From positions 1 through 57,211 of the forward strand of contig JAZKXP010000068.1 of the NCBI GenBank assembly GCA_045611665.1: a stretch of 57,211 bases of DNA, read 5' to 3'. The DNA is from Alphaproteobacteria bacterium (GTDB lineage Bacteria; Pseudomonadota; Alphaproteobacteria; CAAHEQ01; UBA3637). Below, piece after piece: positions 1-7,746 of the stretch. Position 1 is the stretch's first letter. Every line of letters begins with the position of its first letter. The translations under genes and the position numbers were made by a program. The notes beneath the pieces were generated by a model. The model was not told the DNA's origin. It saw only the letters and a list, made by a program, of their open reading frames with translations, and did no database searches.

Positions 1-1
1 G

Positions 2-604
2 GATGCCGAATGTAATACAGGGTGGACCGGCACTTGTTCGTCATGTGATGCGAATTTAGGGTATTGTGTTGAAAAATATGATATGAATAATGCTGCTTGT
101 ACCTTATCTGACGGTACCACGGGTAAATGCGGAGCGGGCGAATGCTTGCCGACAGGCTGTACATACGATACCAACAAATGCGATGATAAAGAATATTGTG
201 CCAGTCCGAATAACAGTTGTACCGAAGCCTTCCAAAGTGGCGAAAGTGGGTCTTGTGTTTCATTTAACGCCCGTTTTTCACCGTTGACAATGGACGATGG
301 TACAACGTATTATGTTGCCAATGGCCCCTTGTCCTGGTGGGATGCGGATGCCGCGTGTAAATCTGTTAAAAAAGAGTTGTTGAGTGTATCTGACTTTGTC
401 ACAGAAACGTCTGGCACTCACAGCAAAACGGCTCTTGCCAATGAATTATATAGTAAAGGATGGAACAGTACAGGGCGTCCGTACATCTGGGCGGAAAAAT
501 TGGCAAATGATTCTTGCTACGCGTACCGCGTGGACCTGGTGGAGGGTGACGTCTACAACGACGATCGCAACACCACCGGCTACTTCTCCGCGGTCTGTAA
601 GTAG
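2..604 (+). CDS. Cys-rich surface protein with C-terminal C-type-lectin-like (CLec) domain; 5'-truncated by window edge; candidate DGR target
   Basis: Frame is open from nt 2 (DAECNTGWTGTCSSC...) into the 83..604 ORF. The C-terminus LSWWDADAAC...YIWAE...CYAYRVDL..GDVY...SAVCK has CLec-like motifs. The last 29 codons are NNC-rich. Confidence 0.75.
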   Translation, partial: DAECNTGWTGTCSSCDANLGYCVEKYDMNNAACTLSDGTTGKCGAGECLPTGCTYDTNKCDDKEYCASPNNSCTEAFQSGESGSCVSFNARFSPLTMDDGTTYYVANGPLSWWDADAACKSVKKELLSVSDFVTETSGTHSKTALANELYSKGWNSTGRPYIWAEKLANDSCYAYRVDLVEGDVYNDDRNTTGYFSAVCK

Positions 605-635
605 TTTTTCGGCTTTTTAATAGGGGGGACTTTTG

Positions 636-671
636 TCTATCGCCGATACTTCCTTCAGTGTCGGCGATAGA
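636..671. terminator. 15-bp stem / 6-nt loop hairpin (terminator and/or DGR target hairpin)
   Basis: TCTATCGCCGATACT-tccttc-AGTGTCGGCGATAGA, with one G-T pair; lies between the convergent ORF1 and tRNA-Thr. Confidence 0.6.
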
Positions 672-679
672 TGTATCTG

Positions 680-770
680 ATAAAGTAGTATAGATATAAA
701 AATGGTGCCGTTTAGAGGGACCGAACCCTCAGGCCCACGCATTACGAATGCGTTGCGTGGCAACGCCGGC
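680..770 (-). repeat. Degenerate tandem copy of tRNA-Thr 3' two-thirds plus 23-nt trailer (tRNA-like element)
   Basis: 680-756 is nearly identical to 771-846; it keeps the anticodon arm, a T-like hairpin and ACCA, but lacks the D-arm. Confidence 0.85.
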
Positions 771-793
771 ATAAAGTAGTATAGATACAAAAA

Positions 794-869
<76 letters not shown>

Positions 870-931
870 ACATGTGTTCTTTATACACGCTTTTTTTTAA
901 AAATGCAACATAAATTTTTATCCGTTATCTT

Positions 932-957
932 AAAAAAAAGACCCGCACAACGGCGGG
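932..957 (-). terminator. Intrinsic terminator of the small ORF 966-1139
   Basis: CCCGC-acaacg-GCGGG hairpin followed by a T-run on the minus strand. Confidence 0.6.
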
Positions 958-965
958 ATTTTAAC

Positions 966-1139
966 TTAGCGAGAACCCATTCCCGCATTTGGAATTATTT
1001 TTGTTTCACGTTGTGGTGTTGGCGCATTCAATTCTTGGATGGCGGCCGTTAACGTTGTTTGTTGAGGTTTTTCTTCATTGCGCTTAGGTGTCCCGCACGC
1101 AAAGGATATTCCCTCTTTAAAATCTGTACTTCCTGTCAT
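966..1139 (-). CDS. Small hypothetical protein, 57 aa (MTGSTDFKEGISFACGTPKRNEEKPQQ...GMGSR), below the ORF-track cutoff
   Basis: ATG with AGGAG RBS (1147-1151), a near-consensus promoter upstream and a terminator downstream. Confidence 0.65.
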   Translation of the reverse strand: MTGSTDFKEGISFACGTPKRNEEKPQQTTLTAAIQELNAPTPQRETKIIPNAGMGSR

Positions 1140-1183
1140 GGCTTTACTCCTTTCGTGAGTTTGTCAACATTTCTTATAATATA

Positions 1184-1212
1184 ATTCTAACAGATATTTC
1201 AAAAACTGTCAA
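1184..1212 (-). promoter_or_regulatory. Sigma70-type promoter TTGACA-17bp-TAGAAT with extended -10 TG
   Basis: Read directly on the minus strand upstream of 1139. Confidence 0.7.
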
Positions 1213-1264
1213 CCCCTAAAATAGTTTTTTGACACTTTTTTTGTCAACAAATGGTTAACGAGGT

Positions 1265-1846
1265 TTATTTGCTGACCACTACCATGGCTTCCCGTAAAAC
1301 ACGATCTCCGCCGATGGTGTATCCCGTCTGCATTTCTTGTACGATAACGCCGGCTTCGGTATCGGGAACTTCAATTTGACTGATAACTTGATGTAAGTTC
1401 GGATCAAATACTTTTCCTAACGAAATGATTTTTTCAATCCCTTGTTTTTTCAGGGCGTCTTCCAGTTGTTTTTGAACCATTTCAAGTCCCGTAATCATGT
1501 TACCCAAAAATGTTTGATCGGGGGATTTTTCTTTTTCTTTGCGGGCACACTCTAACGCATTTGATAAACAATCGGCTACCGGTAATAAATCTTTAGCGAA
1601 CTTTGAACAAGCGAATTTGAGATGATTTTCCATGTCAATAGCGGTGCGTTTACGCAAGTTTTCCATTTCTGCTTGCATCCGCATAGCTTTATCTTTCCAA
1701 GCGGCACATTCTTCCAATGATTTAATTAACTCGTCTTGAGGGGTATCGATTGGTTGAGATTGTTCATTTTTTGATGGTTTTTCAGGTGTTTTTTGTGTTT
1801 CGGTTGCTTTGGCTAAGTGTTCTTTGAGTGTGTTTTTTTTATTCAT
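1265..1846 (-). CDS. grpE: Nucleotide exchange factor GrpE
   Basis: AEMENLRKRT, FAKDLLPVAD, FDPNLHQ and GY..GDRVLREAMVVV motifs. Confidence 0.97.
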   Translation of the reverse strand: MNKKNTLKEHLAKATETQKTPEKPSKNEQSQPIDTPQDELIKSLEECAAWKDKAMRMQAEMENLRKRTAIDMENHLKFACSKFAKDLLPVADCLSNALECARKEKEKSPDQTFLGNMITGLEMVQKQLEDALKKQGIEKIISLGKVFDPNLHQVISQIEVPDTEAGVIVQEMQTGYTIGGDRVLREAMVVVSK

Positions 1847-3291: not shown

Positions 3292-3918
3292 ATGAAAACA
3301 AAGATATCTCTTGTAGTTTTTTTGATTGCATTTGTTCTTGTGTTTTGTGGCTATTTATATGTACATGAAAAAGAAAATGCCGATTATCTCCATTTAAATG
3401 CCGTAACAATTGATCCGCGTGACGGACATTTTGTTGTATCGTCTGCTTCTGCCTACAATCTTTTTAAACTCCATCGCAAGACCGGAGACCTTTTGTGGGT
3501 GTTGGGCGGTAAGAAAAATGACTTTAAGATGAACCACGATGATTTATTTGTGCGGCAGCATCATCCGCAAATCACCTCCGATGGTCAAATGTTGTTATTT
3601 GATAATGGGGTTTCCAGTTTAGATGAAGAAACAAGGGAGGTTTTTAATGTACCATCTCGTTTCGCTCGCATTATGTTATTTGATTTGGACGAGAAAAATA
3701 AAACCGTTGGGAAAGTAAGTGTAAAAGATTTGGGATTTTGGGTACCCTATATGGGGAGCGTACAACTGTTTAAAAATGGTGACTTGTTTGTCGGATGCGG
3801 TAGTTCCGATATTTGTTCGGCTAGATTATATAATAAAAAGATGGCGATTTTGTGGACCTTAATAGCAGAAGCTCCTTATAAAATGTATCGAGCCTATTTG
3901 GTTGATAAAATAGATTAG
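3292..3918 (+). CDS. Membrane-anchored C-terminal half of an arylsulfotransferase (ASST)-like beta-propeller
   Basis: N-terminal TM, then DYLHLNAV, TGDLLWVLGGK, FVRQHH, LLFDNG, YMGSVQ and YRAY; only 208 aa. Confidence 0.7.
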   Translation: MKTKISLVVFLIAFVLVFCGYLYVHEKENADYLHLNAVTIDPRDGHFVVSSASAYNLFKLHRKTGDLLWVLGGKKNDFKMNHDDLFVRQHHPQITSDGQMLLFDNGVSSLDEETREVFNVPSRFARIMLFDLDEKNKTVGKVSVKDLGFWVPYMGSVQLFKNGDLFVGCGSSDICSARLYNKKMAILWTLIAEAPYKMYRAYLVDKID

Positions 3919-3919
3919 C

Positions 3920-5152
3920 TTAATCGGTTTGTTCTGCAAAATATTTATTAACGGCTCGCACTAAAGCGCGGGCCAATTTTCGTCTATATGATTTCTTTTG
4001 CAATAATTTGTCTTCACGTGGATTGGATAAGTATCCCAACTCCAACAAAACAGATGGAATATTCGTCGATTTTAATACGGCAAATCCGGCAAAGCGATGT
4101 GCGTTTGGTAAAAGGGTTGTTTCTTGTTTCATTTCCTTGACCAACTGTTTGGCATAGGTGGCGGATTTGTTCATGGTGTCAATTTTGGCTAAATCAATTA
4201 AAATATTACTGACATCCGGATTGTAATCACTTAAATCCAATCCCAACAAAATATCGGCTTTGTTTTCTCGTTCGGCAAGTGCAGCCGCCTCTTTGTCGGA
4301 GGCTCGTTCGGAAATGGTGTAAACAGACAATCCGCGTGCCGATTTATTTTTAGCACTGTCTGCATGAATGGAAATAAATAAATCTCCGTCCGCTTCGTGA
4401 GCAATTTGATATCGCCGACGTAAGGGGATGGCTTTATCCGTGCTGCGCGTTAAAACAACCGTGTAGCCGGCATCTTCCAAATACTCACGTGTTTCTTTTG
4501 CCATGGCTAATGTGATGTGTTTTTCGTATTTACCCGAACGAGAAATGGCACCGGGGTCTTTTCCGCCGTGTCCGGGGTCCAGAACAACAATCTTTTTTGT
4601 TTTTTTCTTTAAAACCGTTGTTGCGGAGGGTGTCTGTATTTTTTGTGTAGAGGAGTGAGGTTTTAATGTGTTGATTTTGGGTTTTGGTGTGGGAGCTGGT
4701 GTTTTTTGGGCAGCACCAGAGTTTTTTTTGTTATTTTCGGATGTGGTTTTTGTTGTGTCTGTAATATCCATGACAAACCGCCATCCCGTTTTTTGGGATG
4801 GTTTTAAAGAAAAATGATTTTCCGACGTTTGGTTCTTGGGAATTTCTAAGACTAGGCGGGCTGTTTGTTTGTCCGGAACGCCTCGTCTGAGAGACTTGAC
4901 AAAATCTACTGCCGGAACTTTTGACGGAGCAGATTTGGAAAAGTAGGTGTTTTTGAAATCAATGACCAGTCGGTTTGGATTGGATAGGGTAAAAATTTTT
5001 GTGTCCGGTTTTGCATCTGTTTCTACAACCAGTCTGAGTACATTCGGTTGGTATTTCGCCAAGCGGATGTTTTTAATTTGAGCGGCGGAAACCTGTACCG
5101 TACCCAAAAGACAGTATAAAATCAAACAGGCAAAAGCACATATTTTTCTCAT
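3920..5152 (-). CDS. amiC: N-acetylmuramoyl-L-alanine amidase (AMIN + Amidase_3)
   Basis: Signal peptide from MRKIC; RLVIDF AMIN motif; LDPGHGGKDPGA, FISIHAD, SVLLELGYLSN; divergent from rne. Confidence 0.92.
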   Translation of the reverse strand: MRKICAFACLILYCLLGTVQVSAAQIKNIRLAKYQPNVLRLVVETDAKPDTKIFTLSNPNRLVIDFKNTYFSKSAPSKVPAVDFVKSLRRGVPDKQTARLVLEIPKNQTSENHFSLKPSQKTGWRFVMDITDTTKTTSENNKKNSGAAQKTPAPTPKPKINTLKPHSSTQKIQTPSATTVLKKKTKKIVVLDPGHGGKDPGAISRSGKYEKHITLAMAKETREYLEDAGYTVVLTRSTDKAIPLRRRYQIAHEADGDLFISIHADSAKNKSARGLSVYTISERASDKEAAALAERENKADILLGLDLSDYNPDVSNILIDLAKIDTMNKSATYAKQLVKEMKQETTLLPNAHRFAGFAVLKSTNIPSVLLELGYLSNPREDKLLQKKSYRRKLARALVRAVNKYFAEQTD

Positions 5153-5430
5153 CAGATAAAAAATTCCGCTCTTGGTGAATAAAAAACTTGTCTTTTTATT
5201 CATATACCGATATAATGAAAAATGCAATAGAAAAGTCACACATTCGGTTTTGTTAACTCTTGTGTCTTATTGCCCCAAAAATTTTTTTCAATCCGTGAAG
5301 GAAGAACCATGAAAAACAAAACGATTCTTTTATTTGGTGTCCCTTTGGCATGTGAAATGTCTGCCGGATTGATATGTGTAATGTTTTGGCGGTCTTTATA
5401 TGACTGCTCAACCTATGTATTGGAGAAATT

Positions 5431-7746
5431 ATGTCAAAGAAAATGCTTATTGATGCAACGCATGAGGAACAGACCCGCGTTGTGGTATTGGATAACGGAA
5501 GAGTGGAAGAATTAGATGTAGATACGTCCACTAAAAAACAAATTAAAGGAAATATTTATTTAGCTAAAATTGTGCGGGTTGAACCGTCGTTACAGGCTGC
5601 CTTTGTTGATTATGGCGGTAATAAACACGGCTTTTTGGCGTTCAGTGAAATTCATCCCGATTATTATCAAATCCCGACTGCGGATAAAGAAGCTTTAAAG
5701 GAACAAATGATGGAACGGATTGAGGAAGACCATCGTGAAGATGTGGCTTCTGAAGATGTTGATAATCAAGAGGTGGAAATTATCAGTGAAACCGATGCCG
5801 ATGAAACACGAGTGCACCGCCCATCCTTTTTTAAAAAATATAAAATTCAAGAAGTCATTCGCCAAGGTCAGGTGATGTTGGTTCAAGTGATTAAAGAAGA
5901 ACGTGGAAATAAGGGGGCTGCGCTTACAACGTATTTGTCTTTGGCCGGTCGGTTTAGTGTGTTGATGCCGAATAACGGAAAAGGTGGTGGCGTCTCTCGA
6001 AAAATCACAAATGCAAAAGAACGCAAATCTTTACGCACCATTGTGGATAAATTACCGATACCGGTGGGGATGAGTGTTATTATTCGTACGGCGGGTGCCG
6101 GTAAAACCAAAACGGAAATTAAACGTGATTTTGATTATTTAATTAAAACATGGATGAAAATTCGTGAAGAAACGTTGGAATCTTTGGCACCAAAATTAAT
6201 ACATCAGGAAGGGGATATTATTAAACGATCCTTGCGAGATGTTTTTACGGCGGATATCGAAGAGATTTGGATTGAAGGCGATACCGTATTTAAATCCACA
6301 AAGGCGTTTATGAAAACGTTGATGCCGAATCAAGCTAAAAAAATTAAACAATATAAAGGGGCCGAATCTTTATTCCAAGCTTATCAAGTTGAAAATCAGC
6401 TTGAAACAGTTCACAGTAATATCGTTCAACTGAAATCCGGCGGGTATTTAGTTATTGACCAAACAGAGGCTTTGGTGGCTGTAGATGTCAACTCCGGTCG
6501 TTCCACGAAGGAAAGAGATATTGAAGAAACAGCACTCAGAACCAATTTGGAAACATGTGATGAGCTTGCCCGTCAGCTAAAATTACGTGATTTAGCCGGG
6601 TTGATTGTGATTGACTTTATTGATATGGATGAACCGAAAAACAATGCCGCTGTTGAACGGCGTTTGAAAGAGGCCCTTAAAAAAGACAGAGCTCGTATTC
6701 AAGTCGGTAAAATTTCCGGATTTGGGTTGATGGAAATGTCGCGTCAACGGCTCCATTCCAGCTTTTTGGAAAGCTCATATAAAACATGCCCTCACTGTGG
6801 GGGGAAAGGTGTCGTGCGGTTGGTGGAATCTTGTGCAACACGAACAATGTCATTGTTGGAAGAAGCAGCCAGTCGCTTTGCCGGTCAAACAGTGATTATG
6901 ACCGTTTTGCCGGAAGTGGCCGAATATGTTTTGAATCATAAACGAACAAATTTAACGACATTGGAACAAAAATATGATGTTCAAATTCAAATCCATGCCG
7001 ATGCTTCGTTAGATAAAAATTCCGATTATCGTTTGGAACGTGTGCGCCATAATGGCGATAAGGTTTGTATTCAATTGCAACAACCACAACCACAACGTCC
7101 GGAACGCGCTAAGCCATCACCACGTAAAGAAGAAAAACAAGAGGTCGTGGTCGATAAAATAACGCCTGAAACAGAAGAAACTCAAGGGGAAAATGTTGAA
7201 AAAATCAGTGCTAAAACAGCCAGAAATCGTCGGCGCCGTGAATGGAAACGTAAAAAACACGCCGAACGGTTAGCCAGACAACAAGCCCGTCGTGAAGCAG
7301 AGGCTTTGGCAGCGATGGCAGCAGAGGGAGGCGATATGTCTCAGGCTGTTGTTGTGGTTGAAGACCATTTGCCTGTGGCGTTTGATGAAGACCATAAAGC
7401 TGTTGCCGTTTTAGGTGGAGAAGAACACTTTACCGTTGTAGAACAAGGACGGTTAGAGGCTGATGAAATACAGCCAACAGAACCTAAACGTCGGGGGCGT
7501 AGTAAAAAGAATCAACCAGTTGAGGTAACTTTGGAGGAAACGCCGAAACAAAAACAAGGTAAAGGCCATTTCCGTAATCGCAGACGTAAAAATATCGAGA
7601 CAGAAGCGGCAAATGATGTGATGCAAATGCCGGCCGCTGCCGAAGAGGTTCAACCTTCAGAGCCGGTTGTTGCCGATATGTCGGCAGCCGAAACAGCGAC
7701 ACCTAAAAATCGTCGAGGCGGTTGGTGGAATAGACTTGTCAAATAA
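5431..7746 (+). CDS. rne: Ribonuclease E
   Basis: GNIYLAKIVRVEPSLQAAFVDYG, DVNSG, GLIVIDFIDM, CPHC Zn-link, disordered Arg-rich C-terminus ending RRGGWWNR. Confidence 0.97.
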   Translation: MSKKMLIDATHEEQTRVVVLDNGRVEELDVDTSTKKQIKGNIYLAKIVRVEPSLQAAFVDYGGNKHGFLAFSEIHPDYYQIPTADKEALKEQMMERIEEDHREDVASEDVDNQEVEIISETDADETRVHRPSFFKKYKIQEVIRQGQVMLVQVIKEERGNKGAALTTYLSLAGRFSVLMPNNGKGGGVSRKITNAKERKSLRTIVDKLPIPVGMSVIIRTAGAGKTKTEIKRDFDYLIKTWMKIREETLESLAPKLIHQEGDIIKRSLRDVFTADIEEIWIEGDTVFKSTKAFMKTLMPNQAKKIKQYKGAESLFQAYQVENQLETVHSNIVQLKSGGYLVIDQTEALVAVDVNSGRSTKERDIEETALRTNLETCDELARQLKLRDLAGLIVIDFIDMDEPKNNAAVERRLKEALKKDRARIQVGKISGFGLMEMSRQRLHSSFLESSYKTCPHCGGKGVVRLVESCATRTMSLLEEAASRFAGQTVIMTVLPEVAEYVLNHKRTNLTTLEQKYDVQIQIHADASLDKNSDYRLERVRHNGDKVCIQLQQPQPQRPERAKPSPRKEEKQEVVVDKITPETEETQGENVEKISAKTARNRRRREWKRKKHAERLARQQARREAEALAAMAAEGGDMSQAVVVVEDHLPVAFDEDHKAVAVLGGEEHFTVVEQGRLEADEIQPTEPKRRGRSKKNQPVEVTLEETPKQKQGKGHFRNRRRKNIETEAANDVMQMPAAAEEVQPSEPVVADMSAAETATPKNRRGGWWNRLVK

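Follow-up and report, generated by a model that had tools for sequence, protein, structure and literature searches.

The window analysed here is a whole contig of 57,211 nt (C68; GenBank JAZKXP010000068.1, assembly GCA_045611665.1) from an alphaproteobacterium whose genome assembly (G000) comprises 1.14 Mb in 81 contigs, with 40% GC and a completeness of 77.8%. Because the contig begins inside a gene, the 5' part of this gene is missing, and the open reading frame (ORF) listed at positions 2-604 of the plus strand holds its 3' part, 200 codons followed by TAG, with a predicted protein C-terminus that reads ...SCYAYRVDLVEGDVYNDDRNTTGYFSAVCK* before and at the stop. The element under study is the extreme 3' end of this ORF, immediately upstream of the stop codon at 602-604, which we interpret as the variable region (VR) of a gene targeted by a diversity-generating retroelement (DGR). 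The 29 codons at 515-601 end 19 times in C, seven times in G, three times in T and never in A; the codon list and the counts given for this segment in an earlier reading made from the DNA letters (the sequence-only reading) proved exact when we read it again. Over the 171 codons that precede them in the ORF, the third-position counts are 37 C, 32 G, 65 T and 37 A, and in the long ORFs of the whole genome (300 codons or more) 16.3% of third positions are C and 28.4% are A. The binomial probability of at least 19 C among 29 codons is 4e-9, and 19 C were reached in 3 of the 22,551 windows of 29 codons drawn from these long ORFs. The GC content was likewise 0.61 at 515-601 as compared with 0.45 in the upstream part of the ORF.

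The window's gene is one member of a dispersed family, and its last 100 or so nt recur in its own genome. The pattern GC[GA]GTCTGT-NNN-TAG-TTTTTC, allowing up to 2 mismatches, is common to 12 ORF ends in this genome, and 10 of them, that of the window included, carry a GC-rich stretch of NNC codons. Nine other genes therefore end in the same kind of VR, in line with the suggestion of the sequence-only reading that this dispersed target might be one of a family. In the remaining two ends, on contigs C13 and C46, the place of the VR is taken by AT-rich codons of the ordinary kind, and these ends served as internal controls. Many copies lie at the ends of short contigs, which would fit an artefact of assembly or binning, in which VR pieces came from other organisms or strain variants of one locus were split into separate contigs. 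In contrast, the window copy lies on a 57-kb contig beside tRNA-Thr, grpE and rph, the copies on C66, C13 and C46 lie inside contigs of 18-40 kb, the downstream flanks differ between copies, and the estimated contamination of the genome is 0.99%, so that we regard such an artefact as scarcely credible.

Matches to the reverse transcriptase (RT) family RVT_1 were found in 12 of 40 relatives, including two of the five genomes of the same genus. In one of these (G004), contig C69 carries, in this order, an Avd gene, about 290 nt of non-coding DNA and an RT gene. The Avd protein matched Pfam bAvd with 60.6 bits (cut-off 40) and NCBIfam DivGenRetAVD with 54.6 bits, below the cut-off of 80, while the RT, an RVT_1 member, is about 380 aa long. 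The non-coding DNA between the two genes includes a 105-nt AAC-rich repeat, the template repeat (TR), and contains the sequence TCTTGC AAC GCG TAC AAC GTG AAC CTG AAC AAT GGT AAC GTC AAC AAC AAC AAT CGC AAC AAC AAC AAC TAC GCG GTT TGT CGG TAG TTTTTCGGCTTTTTAG. Window positions 510-619 (C68:510-619) aligned to this TR (L018:841-944) with 76% identity by blastn, and on this homology, together with a base-class alignment, we define the VR in the wide sense as 510-619 on the plus strand; the start at 470 given by the sequence-only reading was about 40 nt too early. The same reading had written out a predicted template, every given codon of which agrees with the TR of G004 apart from a GTC where GTT was found, and a DGR target and a near-exact template had in this way been called from codon endings alone in raw sequence. 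A non-coding copy of the repeat beside RT and Avd genes, which it had also anticipated, is present in the same-genus genome but not in the window's own assembly.

Homologous AAC-rich TRs were also found in three other genera of the family (genomes G006, G022 and G012), in each case directly upstream of an uninterrupted RT frame (396-432 aa) and accompanied by an Avd-like ORF; in G006 a target gene with a matching end sits just upstream. Overall, DNA resembling the TR or the VR was present in 14 of 60 sampled genomes of the family, the window's own genome excluded, and the neighbourhoods of the cassettes vary among genera. A phage-borne cassette was considered and set aside, as the cassette of G004 has a target gene on one side and argS/dnaX/groEL on the other, and an exact-pattern scan of viral contigs did not find the TR. 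Scans with TR patterns gave 0 matches in JGI metagenome contigs (two scans) and in IMG/VR (one scan), a result that says little because the patterns were exact. Separately, a second DGR-like locus was noticed by eye in genome G003 (contig C10, locus L017, approximately 3700-6400), where a 372-aa RT and an Avd-like ORF occur together with a ...WSASAN.D.DVFCVG... segment in two copies, on a contig that also has phage-like genes and masked stretches. This locus was discarded as a source of these VRs, its repeat being different and the locus unrelated.

Each VR-like end was then aligned to the TR of G004 and the mismatches were tallied according to the base of the TR. The window VR differed from it at 15 of 32 adenine sites and at 6 of 71 other sites, and its variable codons, of the NNC type, span 518-588 on the plus strand, with these 15 adenine differences and 6 extra bases within the AAC tract. 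When the ten GC-rich VRs were pooled, mismatches fell on 159 of 319 adenine sites as compared with 48 of 705 non-adenine sites (C, 10/249; G, 16/198; T, 22/258); as we read the alignments, an end-of-alignment artefact accounts for 10 of the G mismatches and a constant difference, GTT in the TR and GTC in the VRs, for 10 of the T mismatches. The control paralogs, by comparison, differed at 13 of 32 adenine and 22 of 71 other sites (C13) and at 16 of 32 and 22 of 71 (C46). Two of the VRs of G004 compared with their own TR gave 18/32 adenine and 3/71 other sites, and 14/32 and 2/71, respectively, while two further copies in that genome had decayed.

Comparisons between paralogs of the window's genome and among orthologues gave a concordant picture. 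The paralogs on C33 and C58 of the window's genome are 96.1% identical across the 205 nt upstream of the VR, whereas over the first 57 nt of the VR mismatches between the two occupy 16 of the 21 sites where the TR has an adenine and 1 of the 36 others. In the five closest database orthologues, identity to the window's protein was 87-90% outside the VR and 42-52% inside it. The differences between VR and TR fall almost only at TR adenines, as the sequence-only reading had expected of a DGR product. Since the adenine counts, the C33/C58 pair and the divergence among orthologues agree, a DGR origin of 518-588 is very secure, and the three together argue against ordinary paralog divergence or codon bias.

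A history with no retroelement at all would have to invoke diversifying selection on a loop shared by paralogs, with the C-ending codons and the 3' end kept by gene conversion or by compositional bias. The differences in length between copies, the few changes at non-adenine sites and the lack of an RT in this assembly would all suit it. Nevertheless, the columns that vary are those at which a real TR, lying between avd and RT in relatives, has its adenines. The non-adenine columns, silent third-position C's included, are almost invariant in a genome in which C makes up 16% of third positions, and codon use at the corresponding place is ordinary in C13 and C46, the paralogs that lack the signature. 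We therefore consider this explanation close to refuted and very improbable, and conclude that 510-619 is, with high confidence, a bona fide DGR variable region made by adenine mutagenesis from a TR.

The sequence that follows the variable codons resembles the elements that guide homing in known DGRs. An invariant 3' block (590-619, plus strand), which includes the stop codon at 602-604, is common to the VR-type copies and the TR, and is similar to an initiation of mutagenic homing (IMH) element. VRs and TR are identical for about 30 nt past the last variable codon, except for the GTC/GTT difference and an AAG for CGG in the window, and the block is kept whole in seven copies of this genome. 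Past the block the TR diverges, while the VRs run on with ATAGGGG..ACTTTTG and an inverted repeat. In the window these correspond to a spacer at 620-635 (ATAGGGGGGACTTTTG), not present in the TR, and a hairpin at 636-671 (arms 636-650 and 657-671, 93% complementary), both on the plus strand; spacer and hairpin are common to seven of the ORF ends of this genome. Folded as DNA, the hairpin has a free energy of -14.5 kcal/mol (z -3.65), and an 11-bp stem is kept in 12 copies from this genome and G004, with compensatory changes at 4 pairs. At the window copy both the block and the hairpin are intact.

In the Bordetella phage paradigm, an IMH block and a downstream target-recognition hairpin guide homing, and by analogy the role of the IMH would fall to the 3' block and that of target recognition to the hairpin. 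A T-run follows the hairpin in some copies, and family members that lack the hairpin carry ordinary terminators at this place, for which reason the hairpin may act in transcription termination, either besides or instead of a role as a cruciform for DGR target recognition.

In the mechanism that we propose, a TR rich in AAC codons would be copied into RNA, and a complex of RT and Avd would reverse-transcribe this RNA while misreading its adenines. The resulting cDNA would replace the VR with the conserved 3' block, and possibly the hairpin downstream of it, as a guide, so that an AAC codon would become an NNC codon while G, C and T of the template would be copied faithfully. Because at least 10 dispersed genes carry a VR, the cassette would act in trans on a family of putative pilus-borne adhesins.

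A number of observations weigh against this interpretation, and they concern the template used for comparison, the length of the VR and the whereabouts of the cassette. The reference TR belongs to another species of the genus, whose grpE-rph flank is only about 78% identical to that of the window, that is, housekeeping DNA differs by about 22%. The non-adenine changes of the window VR include GTG GAG where NNC NNT would be expected, besides the AAG for CGG, and its 6/71 such changes compare with 2-3/71 in the copies on C23, C26, C33, C56 and C81, constant columns included; with the two constant columns removed by eye, these five copies have about 2 non-adenine mismatches in total.

As for length, the window VR is 6 nt longer than the TR of G004, and the VRs of that genome exceed their own TR by 3, 6, 3 and 21 nt. 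Homing from a single TR in one round does not predict such differences, either between VRs or between VR and TR. Across the window's genome VR length ranges from -6 to +24 nt relative to the TR of G004, always by whole codons; the changes are concentrated in the AAC tract that follows CGC, NNC codons make up nearly all of the additions, and length varies likewise among close orthologues. Possible causes are a drifting TR tract combined with VRs frozen at different times, additional TRs, or slippage of the RT. That the cassette itself generates diversity in codon number besides substitutions seems to us unlikely; if the RT did slip on the AAC repeat, one retroelement would both resize and recode the binding loop of more than 10 pilus-borne lectins.

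With regard to the cassette, the RVT_1 family search of the window's genome gave no match, and a six-frame regular-expression search for YxDD with upstream RT motifs gave no frame. The Avd and RT of G004 found no match in this genome by tblastn (best E values of 0.5 and 2.4, respectively), and blastn with the TR retrieved only VRs and no A-rich TR copy from it. The site syntenic to the cassette of G004 lies on contig C23, which carries a target gene, its VR, the hairpin and a 33-nt stretch identical to that with which the G004 contig begins, and then, at the place of avd, TR and RT, a MazG-like ORF, followed by argS and dnaX as in G004. This ORF, named by eye, encodes 111 aa on the minus strand (C23:1230-1640, locus L020). 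Syntenic replacement and empty searches together leave two possibilities, a cassette in some part of the genome that was not assembled or the loss of the cassette. Moreover, the RT frame of G004, which belongs to the only cassette found in the genus, is interrupted by one in-frame TAA (L018:1476-1478), which leaves ORFs of 163 and 217 aa and could be a real pseudogene or a consensus error of a metagenome-assembled genome (MAG).

These points lead to a narrower form of the DGR interpretation, in which a DGR wrote the VRs but this strain has since lost its cassette, and the window VR no longer diversifies. In addition to the missing RT, Avd and TR, the occupied syntenic site, the stop in the RT of G004 and the larger number of non-adenine changes in the window VR than in the cleanest copies, it is favoured by the related genome G005 (96% complete), which has one VR-type gene and no RT, and by clearly decayed former VRs in the window's genome and in G004. 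The latter are found at C13:14916-14940 and C46:3474-3490 and at loci L067 and L068 of G004; all four keep the conserved last codons, L067 and L068 retain even the hairpin, and their VR-equivalent stretches have drifted at all four bases, so that they resemble former targets and could serve to date the loss of homing. On the other hand, the absence of a cassette is not proven because the assembly is only 77.8% complete and split into 81 contigs, and the cassette could sit elsewhere, given that its neighbourhoods vary among genera. The intact 3' block and hairpin at the window copy also speak against loss, as do the five VRs that match a foreign TR at all but about 2 non-adenine sites in total, a near-match which, with housekeeping DNA about 22% different, argues for very recent homing. 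We put the chance that the window VR is frozen in this sense at about even. Whether the strain still owns a working cassette we would answer with a hesitant no, rating the possibility somewhat below an even chance; its VRs would otherwise be recently frozen relics. The statement of the sequence-only reading that the gene is hypermutated in trans by a DGR accordingly holds for its adenine-templated origin, whereas hypermutation in the present is no more than a possibility, neither TR nor RT having been found in the genome's own, incomplete assembly.

Public data were also surveyed for variants of the window. Parts of window positions 1-1300 were present in assembled contigs of 20 entries of public sequencing runs from 11 studies, with a best word share of 0.31, all of them animal gut or faeces metagenomes. 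In run X1 the flank at 836-1726 was recovered with 5 differences in 891 nt; none of the contigs listed crosses the VR. In run X4 a relative was present that has diverged over 1-614 (59 differences, 27 gaps). Among its changes, those listed at 527, 528, 534 and 539 coincide with sites where the TR has an adenine, although the whole gene differs. The protein database contained no near-identical strain variant of the window protein, the best full-length hits (405-407 aa) being 80-81% identical and the best of similar length 77%. Those relatives that bear a name are entered as 'MAG: Alphaproteobacteria bacterium' and come from the gut of deer, buffalo and sheep.

The part of the protein that the VR encodes belongs to a compact domain. 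Positions 260-601 (plus strand) encode a C-type-lectin-like domain of 114 aa, for which an AlphaFold2 model built on a 37-sequence alignment had a mean predicted local distance difference test score (pLDDT) of 94.1 and a predicted template modelling score (pTM) of 0.85. The VR encodes its last 29 residues (model residues 86-114), which form the last strands of the domain. A structural search with VIA-align, which is independent of Foldseek, returned 8oks_B as the best match (Z 11.3, root-mean-square deviation (rmsd) 2.4, 92 aligned residues); 44 chains had Z >= 8, and all 50 matches listed are C-type-lectin-like or contain such a domain (intimin, invasin). The top matches in Foldseek were snake-venom C-type lectins, Bd2740, the C-terminal domain of Legionella Lcl and intimin, with 1c3a_B at E 7.5e-4. 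In agreement with the C-type lectin fold named by the sequence-only reading, the domain model thus matches solved C-type-lectin-like domains.

In sequence the domain defines a small family. Among 1.84 billion cluster representatives, a HMMER search seeded with the C-terminal 114 residues yielded only 53 proteins at E <= 1e-3. DUF1566, Lectin_C and FGE-sulfatase gave no Pfam match at E <= 1 in the window protein or in the full-length paralog on C66, none of the three was found in the 31 of these 53 hits that were scanned, and NCBIfam returned 0 families, so that neither library has a model of the domain. One distant multi-domain hit (P0001) had a weak Xlink score of 30.8 bits with no single stretch passing, which we take as no more than consistent with the fold. 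Eight residues, which form an SDGSAWKG-like segment in each of the five closest orthologues, are missing from the window protein; the gap is at window 406-430 (alignment columns 343-350), in a loop of the lectin domain outside the VR.

Upstream of the domain, positions 2-259 (plus strand) encode a Cys-rich spacer, delimited from the translation, from invariant Cys columns and from segments rich in beta-hairpins in an orthologue model, which stands between the lectin-like domain and a pilin module predicted to lie off the contig. Full-length relatives are 350-410 aa long and share an invariant N-terminal GRSMVEMLGTLAIIGVLS motif, a candidate for the prepilin motif of a G, five residues of which the last is E, and a hydrophobic helix. 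Its scores stay below the cut-offs of the pilin hidden Markov models N_methyl (E 0.044, 13.8 bits, cut-off 21.2) and TIGR02532 (E 0.19). The model of the G004 orthologue had a pLDDT of 78.5, with the first 29 residues below 50, and its residues 22-146 matched type IVb pilins (9iuf_A, Z 10.1, rmsd 2.7, 124 aligned residues; 6t8s, Z 9.0; 8uhf_A, Z 8.6); Foldseek ranks the same pilins first, but above E 0.001. The pilin-like nature that the sequence-only reading had suggested for the family is borne out by this N-terminal fold, and from its orthologues we infer that the window's own protein, whose 5' part is off the contig, has a pilin module as well. The genome also encodes pilus machinery, namely a T2SSE ATPase (C3:1701-2933, 214.6 bits), a secretin (C3:6079-6654) and an A24 prepilin peptidase (C12:6259-6579), and one relative is named 'type II secretion system protein' in a public source. 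The window protein would be displayed on a pilus and bind a ligand through its lectin-like domain.

Beyond the hairpin, the window contains a tRNA-Thr gene (CGT anticodon) on the minus strand at 794-869. Positions 680-770 hold a degenerate tandem copy of the 3' two-thirds of this tRNA together with 23 nt of flank; the repeat period is about 91 nt, the copies are 90-92% identical, and both are matched in same-genus genomes. The tandem copy could be what is left of a second tRNA that has decayed, or the scar of an old integration.

Taken together, the findings describe a system that operates in the manner of the canonical DGRs, in trans and on many targets with a C-type-lectin fold. Well-known DGRs with such targets are those of Bordetella phage BPP-1 (Mtd), Treponema denticola (TvpA) and Legionella (LdtA), and in Treponema several VRs are served by one TR, as appears to be the case here. 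The present system shares with the canonical ones the avd-TR-RT core (here in relatives), an AAC-rich TR, differences between VR and TR at adenines, a VR in the last 30 or so codons of a C-type-lectin-like domain, and a 3' block with a downstream hairpin. It differs from them in that the domain has no Pfam DUF1566, FGE-sulfatase or Lectin_C match and belongs to a small domain family, in that at least 10 dispersed targets occur in a genome of about 1.1-1.4 Mb, and in that VR and TR are unequal in length by whole codons and no core cassette is present in the window's assembly. The persistence of VRs after loss of a cassette and the variation in length by whole codons are the two questions that this family raises.

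The architecture of the target recalls the type IVb minor pilins CofB of enterotoxigenic Escherichia coli and TcpB of Vibrio cholerae, in which a pilin module, a linker and a C-terminal lectin-like tip domain follow one another. The proteins described here likewise combine a pilin module, a linker and a C-terminal binding domain on one chain, and residues 22-146 of the orthologue are best matched by major type IVb pilins. Unlike in CofB and TcpB, the C-terminal domain is C-type-lectin-like and its place at the tip putative, and the direct match to CofB is weak (5ypz_A, E 0.028, probability 0.08). The best structural match of the domain is the C-terminal domain of Bdellovibrio Bd2740 (8oks), a C-type-lectin-fold tip of a surface fibre that has no Ca-binding motif and was compared with Mtd (PMC10769870). 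Sequence identity to it is only 12%, Bd2740 rides a trimeric fibre and not a pilin, and the parts of that report available to us describe no DGR diversification of it.

Diversification of pilus adhesins by DGRs has a precedent in gut Bacteroides, in which, according to the abstract-level account we consulted, type V pili have an adhesive component that is varied by a DGR (bioRxiv 10.1101/2024.11.15.621889). Both cases concern a gut bacterium and a diversified pilus adhesin; judged against that account, the carrier here differs in being a type IV(b)-like pilin module, and the host in being an uncultured alphaproteobacterium with a small genome. In the portions of two surveys that we could consult, 'putative pilin structures' are named among DGR targets with a DUF1566 domain (PMC6642488) and pilin-type targets are mentioned (PMC11661182). 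A pilin-like N-terminus of DGR targets has therefore been noted before, as list entries without anatomy in those portions. Within the DGR literature on pilins and type IV pili that was accessible in this form, we found no description of this pilin-lectin family, which the target tables of the surveys may nevertheless list; so far these sources give no more than a passing mention to the combination of a type IV pilin module, a Cys-rich spacer and a compact lectin-like domain. That so small a genome (about 1.1-1.4 Mb) carries at least 10 targets suggests a lifestyle in which variable attachment, be it to host, mucus, food particles or other microbes, plays a central part. Uncultured gut Alphaproteobacteria with small genomes are thereby added to the organisms with a large investment in surface variation by DGRs.

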